From contig CAZROS010000001.1 in assembly GCA_964601825.1 (NCBI GenBank), positions 1 through 25,758 on the forward strand: DNA of 25,758 bases, given 5' to 3'. Below are positions 6,913 to 14,003 of the stretch, one piece after another. How positions within the stretch are numbered: position 1 is the first letter of the stretch; each line of letters starts with the position of its first letter. The notes below the pieces were generated by a model. That model made no database searches. It saw nothing but the letters and a program-made list of their open reading frames with translations, and was not told the DNA's origin. This DNA is from an uncultured archaeon. Lineage in GTDB: Archaea; Aenigmatarchaeota; Aenigmatarchaeia; Aenigmatarchaeales; JACQIB01. A program made the position numbers and the translations under genes.

Positions 6913-9681
6913 ATGATTCCGCTATTGCAGAAAATTCTTGAAGCAAATCTATGCGACTCTTGTGTAGGCAGGCAGTTTGGCCAATTGCTTTCAGGCTACA
7001 CAAACGCAGAGCGCGGGAAATTTCTGCGCGCTTTTGCAGCAACAGCTGTTGACGGGAGAAAGCTCTCAACAGAAAAAATAAATCCAAATAATTTTTCTGG
7101 CTTTAAGTTCAGGCAGAACGCGGATTTTGAGAAAATTCTAATAGGGGTGCGGGGTGCGAAGCATCCTGCGTGTGAATTGTGTTATGGACTTTTTGATAAC
7201 TTGGACAAAACAGCAAAGCGCATCTCAAACTCCCTAAGCAAATATGAATTCTCAACTTTTGTTATTGGCACAAACCTCTCGCGCAAACTTTTGGATGCAG
7301 AAGAGAAATTGTGGGAGCGCTGCGGAATTGATTATTGCGAGCCCATGCGGGCTGAATTAAACAGAGAGCTGGGCAAGCGAGTTGAAAAAATTGCAGGAAA
7401 AAAAGCAGACTTGAAAAAACCTGACATTGCTGTTCTCTTGGACATGGAAGCGAACAAAGTTTGGCTGAATGTAAACCCGCTTTTTATTTTCGGCTATTAC
7501 CAAAAATTGCAGCGCGGATTCCCGCAATGCAAATGGGGCACGCCTCACAAATACAAAACTTCTGTTGAGGAGCAAGTGGGTTTGCCTGCTTTAAAATTAA
7601 CTTTAGGAAGAGACCACAAATTTCACGGATGTGTCGCTGGAGATACGAAAATCCTACTCAACGAATGTTCGCTTCCAATCAGAGAGTTAGAAAATTCCTA
7701 CAGCAAACATGAAGCAATGTCTTTTGACGAGAAAGAGAAAAAAATAGTTGCATCAGATATAAAAGATTTCATGAAAATGAAAGCCGTCATATATAAAGTT
7801 AAAACAAAAGAAACCGGAAGAGATATACTTGTTACAAATGAGCATCCGTTCTTTACATCCGAAGGGATGAAGCCGCTTGCGAACTTAAAAATGGGCGAGC
7901 TTGTCGCTGTTAATCCTTTAGAGCCCGCCACATATTCTGAATTTAAAGGAAAAATAATTTCAGATGAAAAAGAAATTAATTTAGTTATAGAGAAATATGC
8001 GCCGACTTCTTTCAAATCTAAAATAATCAAAGAGCTGAAAGAAAGAAAATTGCTGCCGCTTTTTGCTGATAGCCCCTCTGCTTTGATTCTTGCGAGAATC
8101 GCGGCATTTCTGTTTGGAGATGGAAATGTAAGATATACAAGAAAAAGAGATGTTGGAATAGAGTTTTATGGTGAAGTTGTTGACTTGAGAGAAATACAAA
8201 AAGATTTAGAAAAATTGGGATTTAAGTCTGAACTTTATAAGAGAAATTTGAGAACATCAATTATAAAAGATTATTATGGAAACGAAAAAATAATAGAACC
8301 CAAAAAAGAGCAGAGAGTTTTGGTTTGCTATTCTAAAAGCTTGTGGGCTTTGCTTGTAGCATTGGGCGTGCCTGTGGGAAATAAAGTTGTAAACGAATTT
8401 AAAATACCAGATTGGATAAAAGAGTCAGACTCATTCAAGAGAGAATTTCTCGCTTCTTTATTTGCTTGCGAGATGGACGTTCCAAGATTAGACAAAAGAA
8501 ATTACAACAGAAAGAGCTTTAACACTCCCAGATTTTCTCTGAACAAAATAGAAAGCAAAGTCAATAACATGGTTGCATTTATGGAAGATATAAAAGAAAT
8601 TCTTTCGGAGTTTGGAATAAGAACTCTCAAATTAAGGCTTCTGCCTTACACTACAAGAAAAGATGGAAATAAATCTATAAAGGTAATACTGGACTTCAAT
8701 AACAGTTTTGAAAATCTGATAAATTTATACAACAAAATAAACTTCAGGTACTGCAGGCAGAAAGAAATTCGCTCTAAACATGTACTGGAATATCTGCTCA
8801 TGAAAAAATATTTTGTTGATAAGCGCAAAGAGCTTTACAAAAAAGCTTTGGAATTAAAGAAAGATGGAATGAAATTATCTGAAATTCATAGAAAGCTGAA
8901 TAGCGATCATGTTAGTAAAAAAGACTTGTGGCTGTGGGTTAGTGGCAATATAAAAAATAGAAATATAAAAGTTCGGAATAATTTCCCAAGTTTTGATGAT
9001 TGGCTCAAAAAACATTCAGAGGGACTTGCTTATGGGTTGATTTGGGAAACAATAGAATCTGTAGAAAAGGTTGGTGAAGATTTCGTTTATGATTTGACCA
9101 TTCCAAGAAATCATAATTTCTTTGCCAACGGCTTTTTGGTTTCAAACTCCGGCCGCGAGGATATTGATGCACGTTGCCTTGCCTGGCGGCCGTTTGTTTT
9201 GGAGATTGCAAAGCCGCGGCTGCGCAAAATTGATTTAAAGAGATTAGAAAAAACAATTTCAAAATCAAAAAAAATAAAAGTCCGCGGATTGAAATTTTCC
9301 AATATGGAAACTGTCCGCGAAATTAAAGCAGCAGCTGTTGACAAAACTTACAGAGCGCTCGTTCAATTGAAAAAATCCATTAGCAAAAAAGATTTGAAAA
9401 AACTTTCTGCTTTGCGCGGAACAATTTCCCAGCGCACTCCTGAAAGAGTTTTGCACAGGCGCGCGGATTTACATAGAAAGCGCGAGGTTATTTCAATAAA
9501 AGCAAAATTAAAAAATAAAAAAACTTTGGAGCTTGTGATAAAGGGGAGCGCAGGGCTTTACATCAAGGAATTAATTTCCGGAGACAATGGCAGGACGCGC
9601 CCGAGCGTTTCAGAAGTTCTTGGGACAGAAGCGAAGTGCAAGGAATTAGATGTTGTAAATATAGGAAAGATAAAACTTTAG
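6913..9681 (+). CDS. pus10: tRNA pseudouridine 54/55 synthase Pus10 precursor containing an intein (416 aa after splicing)
   Basis: N-terminal LCDSCVGRQF and CELC Zn ligands, THUMP region 'AELNRELGKR', catalytic 'FHG|SGREDIDARCL', C-terminal 'SQRTPERVLHRRAD' and 'AGLYIKELISGDNGRTRPS'. Confidence 0.95.
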   Translation: MIPLLQKILEANLCDSCVGRQFGQLLSGYTNAERGKFLRAFAATAVDGRKLSTEKINPNNFSGFKFRQNADFEKILIGVRGAKHPACELCYGLFDNLDKTAKRISNSLSKYEFSTFVIGTNLSRKLLDAEEKLWERCGIDYCEPMRAELNRELGKRVEKIAGKKADLKKPDIAVLLDMEANKVWLNVNPLFIFGYYQKLQRGFPQCKWGTPHKYKTSVEEQVGLPALKLTLGRDHKFHGCVAGDTKILLNECSLPIRELENSYSKHEAMSFDEKEKKIVASDIKDFMKMKAVIYKVKTKETGRDILVTNEHPFFTSEGMKPLANLKMGELVAVNPLEPATYSEFKGKIISDEKEINLVIEKYAPTSFKSKIIKELKERKLLPLFADSPSALILARIAAFLFGDGNVRYTRKRDVGIEFYGEVVDLREIQKDLEKLGFKSELYKRNLRTSIIKDYYGNEKIIEPKKEQRVLVCYSKSLWALLVALGVPVGNKVVNEFKIPDWIKESDSFKREFLASLFACEMDVPRLDKRNYNRKSFNTPRFSLNKIESKVNNMVAFMEDIKEILSEFGIRTLKLRLLPYTTRKDGNKSIKVILDFNNSFENLINLYNKINFRYCRQKEIRSKHVLEYLLMKKYFVDKRKELYKKALELKKDGMKLSEIHRKLNSDHVSKKDLWLWVSGNIKNRNIKVRNNFPSFDDWLKKHSEGLAYGLIWETIESVEKVGEDFVYDLTIPRNHNFFANGFLVSNSGREDIDARCLAWRPFVLEIAKPRLRKIDLKRLEKTISKSKKIKVRGLKFSNMETVREIKAAAVDKTYRALVQLKKSISKKDLKKLSALRGTISQRTPERVLHRRADLHRKREVISIKAKLKNKKTLELVIKGSAGLYIKELISGDNGRTRPSVSEVLGTEAKCKELDVVNIGKIKL
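7630..9147 (+). mobile_element. Intein with LAGLIDADG homing endonuclease (506 aa)
   Basis: Starts CVAGDTKILL, block B VTNEHPFF, endonuclease motifs ARIAAFLFGDG and FLASLFACE, block F/G VYDLTIPRNHNFFANGFLVSN, followed by Ser+1. Confidence 0.95.
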
Positions 9682-9737
9682 TCACTAGTAGTCACAAAGG
9701 TTTATATCGCACTTCATTCCTTTCTTTTCAGATTCGT

Positions 9738-10880
9738 ATGGATTTATCTGTTATAGAAAATGATTTTAAAACAGTTCTCAGCCAGAAAAGGCTTTTAGAC
9801 CATCTGAGAACACAGTACAATGGCTGCACTTTGGTTTATGCAAAAAGGCATGGAAGCCAATGGAGGGCTGGAAATGTTGTTCTAGAAATTGGAATAGAAA
9901 GTGGCAGCGGCACGCGGAAAAGAGAAATTATAAAATACTATAACGACCCAGCTTATGATGCAGTAAGCGACCCGCAACAAAAAGAATATTTACAGAGATG
10001 CTACAAGGGAAATGAAATAAGGCAGCAACTGAGATTATCCACACATTACCCAAAAATGTTTCCGAGAGTTTTATGCGATGATGACAGGGCTGTGCTTATG
10101 GAATTCAAGGAAGGCGAAAGCGCTTTAGAAGTTTTCAAATCTGGTAAAGAAGATTCGAGAGATAAGGCTGCAAGATTTTCAAGGCTCGCTCCTCAAAGGC
10201 TTCAAGAAATGTTTTCAACATATCCTAAATCTGATGCGCCTAATTCACATTGCTTGGAAGATGTTTCGCGGACAATTTTTTACCATACAGAAAGGCTGCG
10301 CAATGACAGCAGATTTAATTTGCCGGAAGAAGAGTTTAGAAGAATTGTAGATCTAACAAGAGAGTGGAGCCTAAAACTTTCGAAAAGATATGTTGGCCAG
10401 CCAATTCATGGAGATTTGAATGCTGATAATTTGAGAATTACAGAAAGCGGCGAGCTTTCCCTGATAGACCCGAAAGATGATTCTAGCAACAGCATTGTAA
10501 AAGATTTCGGCAGGTATGTGCCGTCATTTTTAGTTAACTGCTTCGATTACAGTGGTTGGGGTGTTGATTTCGCAGCCGCGCGAGCTAAGGAAATGATAAA
10601 GAGTTTGAACTTAACAAAAGAGGAAGTTGCAAGATTGAGATTTTTCTCTGGCCAGTCAATGCTTTCGTTTTCTTATTATGGAACTCAAAAAGATGGAAAA
10701 GATAACAGCGGAAATCCAAAAAGAAACGGCCCGCTTTCGCAAACATACAGAAGGCATTCTATAAGAACTTTGAGTGATTTGGAAGCTGCTGGCAAGGAGG
10801 ATGTGGACACGTTTGCAGAATCTTTTGCTGGAACTTTTGTGGAAGAAGCACAAAAATATCAAGCTGTTGCAGGTGTTTGA
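9738..10880 (+). CDS. Aminoglycoside phosphotransferase/choline kinase-like protein
   Basis: IHGDLNADN catalytic loop and LIDP motif. The ATG at 9738 avoids the overlap with pus10 implied by the track start 9636. Confidence 0.75.
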   Translation: MDLSVIENDFKTVLSQKRLLDHLRTQYNGCTLVYAKRHGSQWRAGNVVLEIGIESGSGTRKREIIKYYNDPAYDAVSDPQQKEYLQRCYKGNEIRQQLRLSTHYPKMFPRVLCDDDRAVLMEFKEGESALEVFKSGKEDSRDKAARFSRLAPQRLQEMFSTYPKSDAPNSHCLEDVSRTIFYHTERLRNDSRFNLPEEEFRRIVDLTREWSLKLSKRYVGQPIHGDLNADNLRITESGELSLIDPKDDSSNSIVKDFGRYVPSFLVNCFDYSGWGVDFAAARAKEMIKSLNLTKEEVARLRFFSGQSMLSFSYYGTQKDGKDNSGNPKRNGPLSQTYRRHSIRTLSDLEAAGKEDVDTFAESFAGTFVEEAQKYQAVAGV

Positions 10881-11390
10881 ATGATAGTAATTTTTTCGGG
10901 CCTGTCGGGTTCGGGAAAAACCGCAATAGCTTTTTCACTTGCAAAGAAAATTGGCGCAGAAATAATCAGAAACGATGAAATAAGAAAATCTCTTTTTCCC
11001 AATCCAACCTATTCTGAAGAGGAGAAAAAAGTAGTTTACAAAACAATGTTCTTGCTCGCGAAAAAAATTTCTGAATCTGGAAAGCATGTTATTTTGGATG
11101 CAAGTTTTTATAAAAAATCTTTGAGAGATGAGGCGCGCTCTTTGGGAAAAACTTTTCTGGTTTACACAAAATGTCCTTTGGAGATTTGTGTGCAGCGCAC
11201 AAACCACAGAGATGGAAGTGAAGTTGCTGAAAGCGATAAGAGAACTTATGCGCTGAACGAAAAATACGGAACACTTCCTGGAATTAGTGTGCCATTTGAA
11301 GAGCCAGAGGATGCCGACTTAACTTTGAAAACAGACAATCTTAGTATAGAAGAAAGTGTTGAGAAAATACTTAATGAAATAAAGAATTAA
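10881..11390 (+). CDS. P-loop small-molecule kinase (AAA_33/adenylylsulfate-kinase-like)
   Basis: GLSGSGKT Walker A, VILDAS Walker B, C-terminal 'PGISVPFEEPEDADLTLKTD' resembling CysC. Abuts the upstream stop (TGAATG). Confidence 0.8.
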   Translation: MIVIFSGLSGSGKTAIAFSLAKKIGAEIIRNDEIRKSLFPNPTYSEEEKKVVYKTMFLLAKKISESGKHVILDASFYKKSLRDEARSLGKTFLVYTKCPLEICVQRTNHRDGSEVAESDKRTYALNEKYGTLPGISVPFEEPEDADLTLKTDNLSIEESVEKILNEIKN

Positions 11391-11413
11391 AGCTTTGAAA
11401 GCGAGCAATAATT

Positions 11414-11623
11414 ATGCAAGTCAATGTTACAGGAGGCAAGAATTTCTATTCTTTCAGAATACGCGAAGAGGATTGCAGGCTTGAAGTTATAGCAGATAAA
11501 AAAGGCAGACATATACGCTATTTGAGAAATAATGTAGCTTATTGGGGAGGAGACATAAGACCTGAAGAGAATGAAGCAGAATCCCTGAGAAATGCTCTCA
11601 ATAATAAGCTGAGGGAAGGATGA
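11414..11623 (+). CDS. Hypothetical protein (69 aa), possibly truncated
   Basis: Co-oriented ORF filling the gap; no recognised family. Confidence 0.45.
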   Translation: MQVNVTGGKNFYSFRIREEDCRLEVIADKKGRHIRYLRNNVAYWGGDIRPEENEAESLRNALNNKLREG

Positions 11624-11649
11624 GAAGCAAGCCACGCACTTACAGGAGA

Positions 11650-11811
11650 TTATGGAGTTTCAACAACTTTTTCAAATGCGGCTCTTTCAAGCGGAGTCCT
11701 TGGCTCGGTTCTCGTATAAAAAGCTATAATACCCTTTACAATATCCGGGGAAATCTCCGGTGTTTTAATTAGAGTGTCATCCAAATCCAATGCTAGGAAA
11801 GTTTCTGGCAT
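11650..11811 (-). pseudogene. Inverted 5' fragment of a HAD-family hydrolase
   Basis: MPETFLALDLDDTLIKT (HAD motif I DxDxT), TTTTAAAG box 28 nt upstream, stops after 53 aa at an inverted-repeat junction. Confidence 0.7.
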
Positions 11812-11886
11812 AAAAACATCTGTAACTAAATCTTTAAAAGAGTTTATTTTGAACAGCTTCTTTTTTAATTTGAATTTCAACACCAT

Positions 11887-12363
11887 CTCCACATTCTGAT
11901 GTTAGAGATATTGATGCAGCTTATGAGCACATGATGGCTGACAGGACAATAAAATCCCGCACAGAAGTTATGAAAAAAGAAGGAATTTACGAAACAGTTT
12001 ATTTGAATGCGAACAGATTTTTCGATCCAACTCCTTATAGATTAGAGCTTGCTCCGCGCGGGCTTGTTATAAGAAATACCGGATTTGCGGGGCTTTTTCG
12101 ATGATATTGTAACTGCAGATGAGATCGGAATCAAGCTCGGTACAGGGGCTTTTGAATTTTTGAAAGATAAATGCGGCGGAAGAATTGTTTATGTTGATGA
12201 CAATCCTGATTACATTCAGGTGGGAAGACAGAAAGGTTTGGAAAGCTATCACACACGCGAGTTCGCTCGCAAGGCTTATGAAGATGGATGTAAATCGATG
12301 AGTCTGCCTTGTATCGGAGGTTTGCAGGAAATCAGACATGTGGCTTCTCTATCTGGGCAATAG
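11887..12363 (+). pseudogene. 3' part of the same HAD hydrolase, frameshifted near 12084
   Basis: Open frame ...HSDVRDIDAAYEHMM...RNTG, then a +1 shift to LRGFFDDIVTADEIGIK...IVYVDDNPDYIQVGRQKG (HAD motifs III/IV). No motif I on this strand. Confidence 0.7.
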
Positions 12364-12964
12364 CAGATGATAAATCGTAAACTTTTTCTATGTACGCATC
12401 AGCTTCTTTGGATTCAGAACCAACCAAAATTCCTTTCAGCCCCTTTAATTTTGCTGGCAGAATATCTTTCTTCAAGCTATCTCCAACCATTGCAGCATTT
12501 TCAGGCTTAAAGCCCATCTCATCCAGAATTATATCAAAAATTTTTGTGTTCGGCTTTGATTTTTCAAAATATTCCGCCCCGTAGATTTTTTTGAAAAAAC
12601 TTTCTATTTTTAGAATTTTTAAAATCCTTTCCGCAACATCTGTCGGGCTGTTTGAAGCAATAACCAGAGTGTTGTTTTTGGAAATATTTTCAATAACTTC
12701 ATAAAGTTTTTCATCATATTTCAAATGCTTTTCAATATTGGATTTTCTCAGGATTTCAAACATATCTTTTCTTTGCAATCCGAGAGAGAGTAAAACTTGG
12801 GTGCGGCTGTCGAGCTCTTTCAGCTTTTCTTCCATAATTTCTTTAGCTCTATCTTCAGAAACCTTCTGATTTTCAGCAATTTTTCTTATAATCATTTCAT
12901 CTCTTTCTTTCCACAGGCTTTCAGAAAAATACAGGGTTTTGTCCAAGTCAAAAATTATCAGCAT
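12332..12964 (-). CDS. HAD-superfamily hydrolase (nucleotidase-like)
   Basis: MLIIFDLDKTL, ASNS, KPN, MVGDSLKKDI: all four HAD motifs. Start moved to ATG 12964. Confidence 0.88.
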   Translation of the reverse strand: MLIIFDLDKTLYFSESLWKERDEMIIRKIAENQKVSEDRAKEIMEEKLKELDSRTQVLLSLGLQRKDMFEILRKSNIEKHLKYDEKLYEVIENISKNNTLVIASNSPTDVAERILKILKIESFFKKIYGAEYFEKSKPNTKIFDIILDEMGFKPENAAMVGDSLKKDILPAKLKGLKGILVGSESKEADAYIEKVYDLSSAIAQIEKPHV

Positions 12965-12973
12965 GGAAAACAT

Positions 12974-13000
12974 TTGTATAAAAGATTTAAATACGTATTG
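12974..13000. promoter_or_regulatory. Bidirectional AT-rich promoter between the HAD and dCMP deaminase genes
   Basis: TATAAAAG and TTTAAATA elements in the 48-bp gap between divergent ATGs. Confidence 0.45.
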
Positions 13001-13012
13001 TGTAATAGATAT

Positions 13013-13498
13013 ATGCAAAAAGCAATTATCAGGCCGCCGTGGGATGAGTATTTCATGAATATTGCTCACGCAGTTAAAGCCCGCTCAAATTGCATTAAGA
13101 GGCAAGTTGGCGCAGTTATTGCAAAAGACAATAGAATTATTTCTACCGGCTATAATGGAACCCCCAGAAAAATAAAAAATTGCAACGAGGGCGGCTGCGA
13201 GCGCTGCAATTCAAACACTCCATCTGGAAAAGATTTGGATAAATGCATTTGCTCGCATGCTGAAGAAAATGCAATAACTCAGGCAGCGCTTCATGGAGTC
13301 AGGCTTGAGGGAGCGCAAGTTTACACAACTTTCACTCCATGCACAGCCTGCACAAAATTAATACTTGGCGCAGGAATTTCTAAAGTTGTAGCTGCAGAAA
13401 ATTATCCAGACAAAAGAGGCATGGCGCTTTTGAAAGAAGCCAAAATAGAGTTTGAATTTCTTGACACAACGCGCCAGAAATCTTTTAGGGAATTTTAG
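13013..13498 (+). CDS. dCMP deaminase
   Basis: RPPWDEYFM, STGYNG, HAEENAI and PCTAC Zn motifs. Start moved to ATG 13013, sharing a divergent promoter with the HAD gene. Confidence 0.93.
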   Translation: MQKAIIRPPWDEYFMNIAHAVKARSNCIKRQVGAVIAKDNRIISTGYNGTPRKIKNCNEGGCERCNSNTPSGKDLDKCICSHAEENAITQAALHGVRLEGAQVYTTFTPCTACTKLILGAGISKVVAAENYPDKRGMALLKEAKIEFEFLDTTRQKSFREF

Positions 13499-13983
13499 TA
13501 TTTTCCGACATCAATCCCAACATCTCTTGGGCCAAAAGCCATAGGCAACAATTCGCTTATTTTCACTATGTAAACTAAAGTTTTATCTGTGTTTGACATC
13601 ACAACTTCTGTATCCACTCCAGAAACTTGTGAAACTTCATAAATAGCCTGCCTGCACATTCCGCAAGGAGTTACAGGCTTATCTAATTTATTTTTTCCTT
13701 TTCCAATAACAGCTATTGCTTTTATTTTTCTTTTCCCATGTGAGCCGGCGTGATAAAGTGTTGTCTGCTCTGCGTGGGAAGTATTGCTGTATGCCGCGTT
13801 TTCAAAATTCGCTCCGCCGAAAATTTCTCCATCGATTGTCATAGCTGCTGCGCCAACAGAAAATCTAGAATATGGATTGTAAGGATTTTCATTCATTTGC
13901 TTTTCCGCTTCATCTAGCAATCTCTTATATTCATCAGAAAGCTTATCGTAGCTTACCTCTTCAATTGTAGCTTTAATTTCCAT
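13495..13983 (-). CDS. cdd: Cytidine deaminase
   Basis: PYSRFSVGAA, GANFENAAY, HAEQ, PCGMCRQ, ELLPMAF. Confidence 0.93.
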   Translation of the reverse strand: MEIKATIEEVSYDKLSDEYKRLLDEAEKQMNENPYNPYSRFSVGAAAMTIDGEIFGGANFENAAYSNTSHAEQTTLYHAGSHGKRKIKAIAVIGKGKNKLDKPVTPCGMCRQAIYEVSQVSGVDTEVVMSNTDKTLVYIVKISELLPMAFGPRDVGIDVGKY

Positions 13984-14003
13984 ATCTATGATAGAAATCC
14001 AAA

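Follow-up and report, generated by a model that had tools for sequence, protein, structure and literature searches.

Invertible promoter switches and intragenic invertons (fimS/FimBE; elements of Bacteroides; bioRxiv 10.1101/2023.03.11.532203) resemble the locus described here in that a short block bearing a promoter and a gene's 5′ end is oriented against the rest of that gene. They differ from it in that no repeats were found here at the true breakpoints and no invertase, a single orientation was present in four samples, a functional ON state was lacking and the host was an archaeon. The locus was also compared with pseudogenes that decay by small inversions and indels. A gene interrupted relative to its intact homologues, several independent lesions and the loss of invariant residues are common to both, and, as in the pseudogenes of reduced or accessory genome regions, the gene lay in a strain-specific islet in an arrangement apparently fixed in the population. 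The block, however, was unusually small (∼270 bp) and took promoter, start codon and catalytic motif together, which gives it the look of a switch. To our knowledge, inverton systems have been described mainly in bacteria. For the protein itself, comparison was made with its closest relatives of solved structure, plant XMP phosphatase (7ef6/7ef7) and the yeast pyrimidine nucleotidase Sdt1/SSM1 (3onn, 3nuq, 3opx), which were matched by the profile of the gene's family with E values of 1e-9 to 2e-6 (7ef6, 1e-9; Sdt1/SSM1, 2e-7). The match took in the core with motifs II–IV; the motifs come in the same order, and motifs I and II are likewise separated by a C1-type cap. It was limited to this core, whereas the kinase-linked subfamily to which the gene belongs has a signature of its own, a cap Trp, a C...LPC tail and an APS-kinase-like partner. 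No member of this subfamily has been characterised so far. The locus is very probably a pseudogene in an accessory islet, broken by a ∼270 bp inversion that was not mediated by repeats and by a nonsense codon, a deletion and a frameshift, and not a switch.

The window, that is, the whole stretch of DNA analysed (25 758 nt), is contig C1 of a 781 kb assembly (161 contigs, ∼80 % complete, 37 % G+C) of a DPANN-type archaeon from groundwater metagenomes. On its plus strand, pus10 with an intein (6913–9681) is followed by a gene for an APH-like protein (9636–10880), an intact gene for a P-loop kinase of the AAA_33/APS-kinase type (10881–11390) and an orphan ORF of 69 residues (orf69; 11414–11623), which lies between the kinase gene and the broken HAD gene. 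The latter extends from ∼11617 to 12363, with pieces on both strands, and is met convergently by an intact, generic HAD-IA hydrolase gene on the minus strand (12332–12964; Pfam HAD_2, E 8e-24; TIGR02253, E 2e-25); a dCMP deaminase gene (13013–13498, plus strand) comes next. In a same-genus relative (G001) and a same-family relative (G003), pus10 is followed within about 100–150 nt by the dCMP deaminase gene and an NMP-kinase gene. Because both relatives are without the whole block, 9682–13012 (APH-like protein, P-loop kinase, orf69, broken HAD and intact HAD) constitutes a strain-specific islet; the proteins flanking it are 81–96 % identical between the window and G001. No homologue of the APH-like protein or of the broken HAD was found in the 20–60 relatives searched.

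The HAD gene is present in three pieces. A minus-strand ORF (11650–11892; MPETFLALDLDDTLIKT...EKVVETP*) has a Met codon at 11811 and a TAA at 11650–11652, and its codons 1–53 (11653–11811), which include HAD motif I (DLDDT), matched positions 1–53/54 of the family profile (18 bits). On the plus strand, a frame open over 11874–12101 (...SPHSDVRDIDAAYEHMM...RNTGFAGLFR*) contains the middle piece with the cap domain (11892–12101, frame 0; profile positions 77–110, 27.6 bits), and the +1 frame, open over 12085–12363 (RGFFDDIVTADEIGIK...VYVDDNP...), contains the C-terminal piece (12088–12363; profile positions 164–249, 51 bits), in which the motif III Lys, the VDD of motif IV and the C...LPC tail are followed by TAG. 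The Asp residues of DLDDT align with the family-invariant D9 and D11, and K136 (motif III) and D157 (VDD, motif IV) likewise occupy invariant columns. The earlier note had placed motif I with its TATA box on the minus strand and motifs III and IV on the plus strand; both the ORFs and a box at −28 confirmed this.

Homologues were collected without any minus-strand information. An exhaustive HMMER search of 1.84 billion protein representatives, with the plus-strand C-terminal piece alone as the query, retrieved P0002 (244 aa, E 4e-5) and P0003, and subsequent profile searches added P0004–P0007. The profile used here was built from these six remote homologues only, the broken gene being left out. 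Ranked by this profile, the three pieces were the top three of the 22 850 six-frame ORFs in the genome (C-terminal piece, 51.6 bits, E 1e-13; middle piece, E 2.5e-6; minus-strand piece, E 0.005), and no second copy of the family was found among these ORFs. The minus-strand piece aligned with residues 1–32 of P0002 (44 % identity, E 7e-6). The reconstruction of the earlier note aligned end to end with P0002 (BLASTP; 78 bits, E 2e-22), and when the block was flipped and the frameshift bridged, a full-length collinear match to the profile (112.8 bits) was obtained. The outcome that the earlier note had named as refuting, a reconstruction that fails to align over the junction as a single HAD, was thus not observed with these independently retrieved homologues. 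Its central proposal, that one HAD gene was split by an inversion carrying promoter and motif I, also stands: judged by homology to the six-member profile, the pieces are collinear parts of one HAD gene whose 5′ end was inverted. In the homologues, the HAD gene shares a strand with the kinase gene before it; the last two thirds, which lie on the plus strand like the kinase gene here, are therefore taken to have kept the ancestral orientation, the minus-strand piece being the one that moved.

The family is a remote one. Its nearest members are only 27–30 % identical to the broken gene, and the reconstructed 211-aa protein fell short of the cut-offs of both Pfam Hydrolase (E 0.13) and TIGR02254 (E 0.014), as the intact homologues likewise remained just under the Pfam cut-off. 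A word-indexed search of 5.8 billion proteins with the reconstruction returned nothing, as did back-translated pattern scans of metagenome contigs (carried out twice) and of genome contigs; a six-frame search of 60 relatives returned only the window itself, and phmmer with the reconstruction as a single sequence against the PDB gave noise only. When 50 further genomes of the phylum were searched with the family profile, the matches were confined to the generic HAD core. The best two of them (G016 and G021) were ordinary HAD-IA proteins with neither a kinase partner nor the N-terminal signature, and were rejected as family members.

The ends of the inverted block had been placed at an ATGG/CCAT core (11652/11886). 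Re-inverting 11652–11886 does, mechanically, yield one open frame, but the resulting junction leaves out a conserved segment of the family (...KKDS.IY.W...H.), and these breakpoints had to be given up. Minus-strand homology runs on through the TAA to ∼11617: the stretch ETP*SPVSAWLASHP aligns ungapped with the family segment, and its part beyond the stop codon (SPVSAWLASHP; HAD codons 55–65, 11617–11649, minus strand) aligns with the family's s-k-i-y-k-W-l-e-k-h, including the invariant Trp. With the junctions in the revised ranges, the N-terminal score was 62.5 bits, against 42.4 bits for 11652/11886, a gain of 20 bits. For control, the 11 residues were shuffled 3000 times and also replaced by 3000 random 11-mers drawn from non-coding frames; none of the 6000 reached 62.4 bits (mean 47, SD 2.4, maximum 58). 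A separate profile search of genomes likewise carried the minus-strand match to 11617. The inverted block accordingly comprises ∼270 bp (∼11617–11893), with the left breakpoint within ∼11605–11627 and the right one within ∼11880–11897. Since it extends past the TAA at 11650–11652, this triplet is a nonsense codon within the gene. That a frame stays open over a junction chosen by hand counts for little as evidence. A reading frame had been thought to be restored at the left end as well; the sequence concerned, HALTGDY... (HALTGDYGVEIQ...), starts right after the TGA of orf69 (11621–11623), which leaves nothing to be restored at this end.

The two revised breakpoint zones share no exact inverted repeat of at least 5 nt, although the longest repeat expected by chance averages 5.2 nt. 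The lack of an inverted match at these breakpoints points to an illegitimate event with little or no homology, and not to recombination between repeats. The imperfect inverted repeats that had been proposed as boundaries (11645–11659 and 11879–11890) share an exact 6-mer and a gapped 5/6 match. Equal or better inverted local alignments were obtained in 7 % of random window pairs from the same genome at the same spacing (P ∼0.07), the pair was not among the 25 best inverted pairs of a repeat scan, and its left arm falls within the block, in ordinary coding sequence; as boundaries, these repeats were discarded. It was observed that the two arms encode TP*SP (minus strand, 11644–11658) and TPSP (plus strand, 11880–11891), each in the HAD frame of its own strand. 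On the sequence alone, this pair could be the remnant of a short duplication at the breakpoint, or a product of chance (P ∼0.07).

These results bear on the explanation that the block is a phase-variable invertible element, an intragenic or promoter inverton by which a phosphatase is turned on and off, whether or not a dedicated recombinase takes part; the recombinase-free form had been suggested before. A promoter together with the start of a gene is typical cargo of an invertible promoter switch, the flip at 11652–11886 gives an open frame, and 11645–11659 and 11879–11890 are weakly similar in inverted orientation; this similarity is at chance level, however, and lies partly within coding homology, off the breakpoint, and the revised breakpoints have no repeat. 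Searches of the window revealed no serine or tyrosine recombinase, and neither Resolvase (PF00239) nor Phage_integrase (PF00589) had a match in the 781 kb, ∼80 % complete assembly, in which control families were detected. Neither of the hallmarks of an inverton, inverted repeats at the block ends and an invertase, was thus present.

Orientation was examined in Logan contigs, which had been produced with a different assembler from four samples (X1–X4) of one groundwater study at a depth of 3–10×. They matched the window with zero differences and covered both junctions, original or revised, as well as the TAA and the frameshift. In X1, a single contig spanned 11300–12484; the TAA (11650–11652) was contained without differences in contigs of X1–X3, and the sequence of the frameshift zone was identical in contigs of X1, X2 and X4. 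The X4 contigs broke at 11641/11680 and 12188/12264, at a depth of 3–5×; we read these breaks as coverage dropouts, the one at 12188/12264 lying away from any junction. Neither alternative joints nor loose ends occurred in the contigs of the four samples, down to a likeness of 80 %, and at the same likeness no related strain with the ancestral orientation was found among them. The orientation of the window was the only one present in these contigs, which drop rare variants. Alternative-junction 30-mers for five breakpoint models were absent from the genome's own assembly, and when the inner block alone served as the query for further DNA runs, the four already known came back. As far as these contigs show, the arrangement is fixed in the population sampled. 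With a single orientation in four samples, no repeat at the true breakpoints and lesions that would persist in the ON orientation (TAA, motif II gap and frameshift), the invertible element is largely refuted and has become extremely improbable.

The same contigs decide on whether the inversion is only apparent, a chimeric join or a mis-resolved repeat having been mistaken for it during assembly. The genome is a fragmented metagenome bin (161 contigs) and the depth of the public runs is low (3–10×), which would leave room for such an error. The junctions, the TAA and the frameshift were nonetheless reproduced by another assembler in four samples with zero differences, and no repeat long enough to mislead an assembler was present. 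A chimera of the MDA type and a mis-assembly were rejected on the agreement of four independent assemblies, and the probability left for an artefact is close to nil.

Apart from the inversion, the gene carries three kinds of lesion. The in-frame TAA (11650–11652, minus strand) stands at a family-invariant Asp (KKDS/KRDT). At 12063–12068 (plus strand), the hmmalign alignment lacks 11 residues over HAD motif II, the family-invariant (Y/W)T(S/A)xT strand, and the segment from the cap to the invariant Gly of MG..D.FD is 23–25 residues shorter than in every homologue. In an alternative alignment, RNT is kept as motif II and the next helix is deleted; a core element is missing either way. Part of this shortening could, as far as the alignment can tell, be lineage specific and not a lesion. 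The frame switches by +1 in the zone 12084–12096 (TTTGCGGGGCTTT, plus strand): frame 0 homology stops at the invariant Gly (12081–12083), and +1 frame homology begins at the invariant Phe–Asp (12097–12102). A frameshift at about 12084 had been noted earlier as the one extra lesion; it is present, but the TAA and the gap at motif II accompany it. Of the 38 family-invariant columns, 21 are retained and 17 lost, four by deletion, one by the stop codon and 12 by substitution. With four types of lesion (inversion, TAA, gap and frameshift), the single uninterrupted frame of the homologues is not kept, and together with the lost invariant residues this identifies the gene as a pseudogene; the preference for decay expressed in the earlier note is borne out. 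As the TAA, the motif II gap and the frameshift remain after the block is flipped back, no working gene results. The three pieces (∼230 codons) are nevertheless free of stop codons except for one TAA and one frameshift, despite the 37 % G+C of the genome; with so few stop codons, either the decay is recent or selection may still act on one of the pieces. The promoter of the flipped piece, too, is intact and canonical.

That promoter lies within the block. A TATA-like box (TTTTAAAG; 11832–11839, minus strand) is located 28 nt upstream of the HAD ATG at 11811. A TATA box at such a distance from the ATG is expected for leaderless archaeal transcripts. Over 409 long ORFs of the genome, TATA-like hexamers have a sharp maximum between −29 and −27 relative to the ATG, which indicates that most transcripts of this archaeon are leaderless, and because TTTTAAAG sits exactly at the genome-wide −28 peak, the designation of the block as promoter carrying is well supported. 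Ahead of the ATGs in the plus-strand pieces, no TATA-like box occurs at this spacing.

A canonical TATA box at −28 also allows the view that the rearranged locus is in use, as a 53-aa motif I peptide, as an antisense RNA directed into orf69 and the kinase operon, or as a split enzyme. A transcript of the flipped piece would converge on orf69, which ends at 11623, and stop codons within the pieces are few. Split genes are known in DPANN archaea (Nanoarchaeum). The plus-strand pieces, however, are without a TATA-like box at the right distance from any ATG, the protein lacks a core β strand or helix at motif II, and its frame is interrupted; no RNA run holding the locus turned up in a search, and the searches gave no relatives for a selection test. 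Use of the locus is very unlikely. A variant, that the flip was kept for rewired transcription (leftward transcription converging on orf69 and the operon of the APH-like protein and P-loop kinase, as an antisense regulator of the surviving kinase genes, or the 53-aa peptide) or that rare recombinase-free re-inversion occurs below contig detection, is very unlikely.

For the pseudogene, we infer the mechanism of the inversion, the order of events and the loss of function of all the pieces. The ancestor would have been a HAD-type phosphatase of ∼245–290 aa from a small archaeal subfamily, encoded by one gene directly after that of an APS-kinase-like kinase, and the kinase–phosphatase pair resides in the strain-specific islet inserted between pus10 and the dCMP deaminase gene. 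An illegitimate rearrangement probably flipped ∼270 bp with the gene's own TATA box, start codon and first ∼65 codons, including the catalytic DxDxT, and the promoter now faces away from the remaining two thirds of the HAD gene. Three more lesions are present: the TAA at an invariant Asp, the loss of 23–25 residues around motif II and the +1 frameshift. So understood, a tiny non-homologous inversion was followed by point lesions, and the locus is a clean and well-documented case of the death of an accessory gene in a very small archaeal genome, which is an ordinary process. For genome scans it holds a caution, namely that an inverted block with a promoter and weak “inverted repeats” can mimic an inverton.

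A by-product of the analysis is more useful than the pseudogene itself, namely a newly defined archaeal pair of an APS-kinase-like kinase and a special HAD phosphatase. The loci of the pair are L013:7300–8941, L015:6779–9489, L016:3457–7772, L017:1419–5734 and L014:3–1029. In all five homologue contigs, the HAD gene is uninterrupted and on the same strand as an AAA_33/APS-kinase/KTI12-like kinase gene just upstream, the HAD start lying 5 nt past the kinase gene or overlapping it by 8 nt. The pair is divergent from Archease–RtcB in four of the five contigs, and in four of the five a TrmB-type regulator is found downstream of it. The window's kinase shares 33 % identity (E 8e-31) with the kinase encoded just ahead of P0004, it matches Pfam AAA_33 (E 9e-18) and APS_kinase (E 6e-16), and its closest solved structure is the APS kinase 7yq0 (E 2e-17); it is the conserved upstream partner of the broken HAD's family. 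The broken gene thus has the homologous kinase gene upstream of it, on the strand of its plus pieces; unlike in the homologues, orf69 and a separate promoter intervene.

The HAD proteins of the pair share an N-terminal signature (MP..h.hD.DdtLWKaP), an invariant Trp in the cap and a C-terminal C...LPC tail; members carry the JGI label ‘FMN phosphatase YigB’. By sequence, the two proteins may form a nucleotide-directed, or possibly an RNA-end-directed, kinase/phosphatase pair. No paper describing the pair was found in a literature search, and the archaeal kinase–HAD gene pair is apparently uncharacterised. The public gene call of P0003 starts late: a TTG at L015:7722 (7722–7799), 5 nt after the stop codon of the kinase gene, adds MPRRTLIVDGDDCLWKAPVGGYLFPR. 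This extension corresponds to HAD motif I, and the frame is open upstream of the called start.

The intact HAD at 12332–12964 had been seen as making the broken gene redundant. It scored only 16.6 bits (E 0.0056) against the family profile of the broken gene, compared with 51.6 bits for the C-terminal piece, and belongs to a different subfamily, generic HAD_2/TIGR02253 (CTE7 type); it was rejected as a paralogue, which leaves the argument from redundancy unsupported.

On the other side of the break, orf69 matched no Pfam or NCBIfam model, a search of 300 genomes of the class returned no homologue, and the homologous kinase–HAD loci do not contain it. It has an ATTAAAG at −28 from its ATG, like real genes of this genome. 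Its TGA (11621–11623) abuts or overlaps the left breakpoint zone, and the present end of orf69 may have been created by the inversion; if the breakpoint lies at or left of 11621, the ancestral orf69 would have been 17–21 codons longer and would have extended to a TAA inside the HAD TATA box.

Three further observations were made around the islet. Between the window and the same-genus relative, the dCMP deaminases are only 45 % identical, against 81–96 % for the flanking proteins, and the cytidine deaminase (13495–13983) was without a match in the stretches of the two relatives that were compared. This divergence of the deaminases suggests that a whole segment was replaced (window 9682–13990). 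Pus10 of the relatives (L035 and L036) matches the Pus10 of the window (6913–9681) as two adjacent pieces, without the insert of ∼500 residues.
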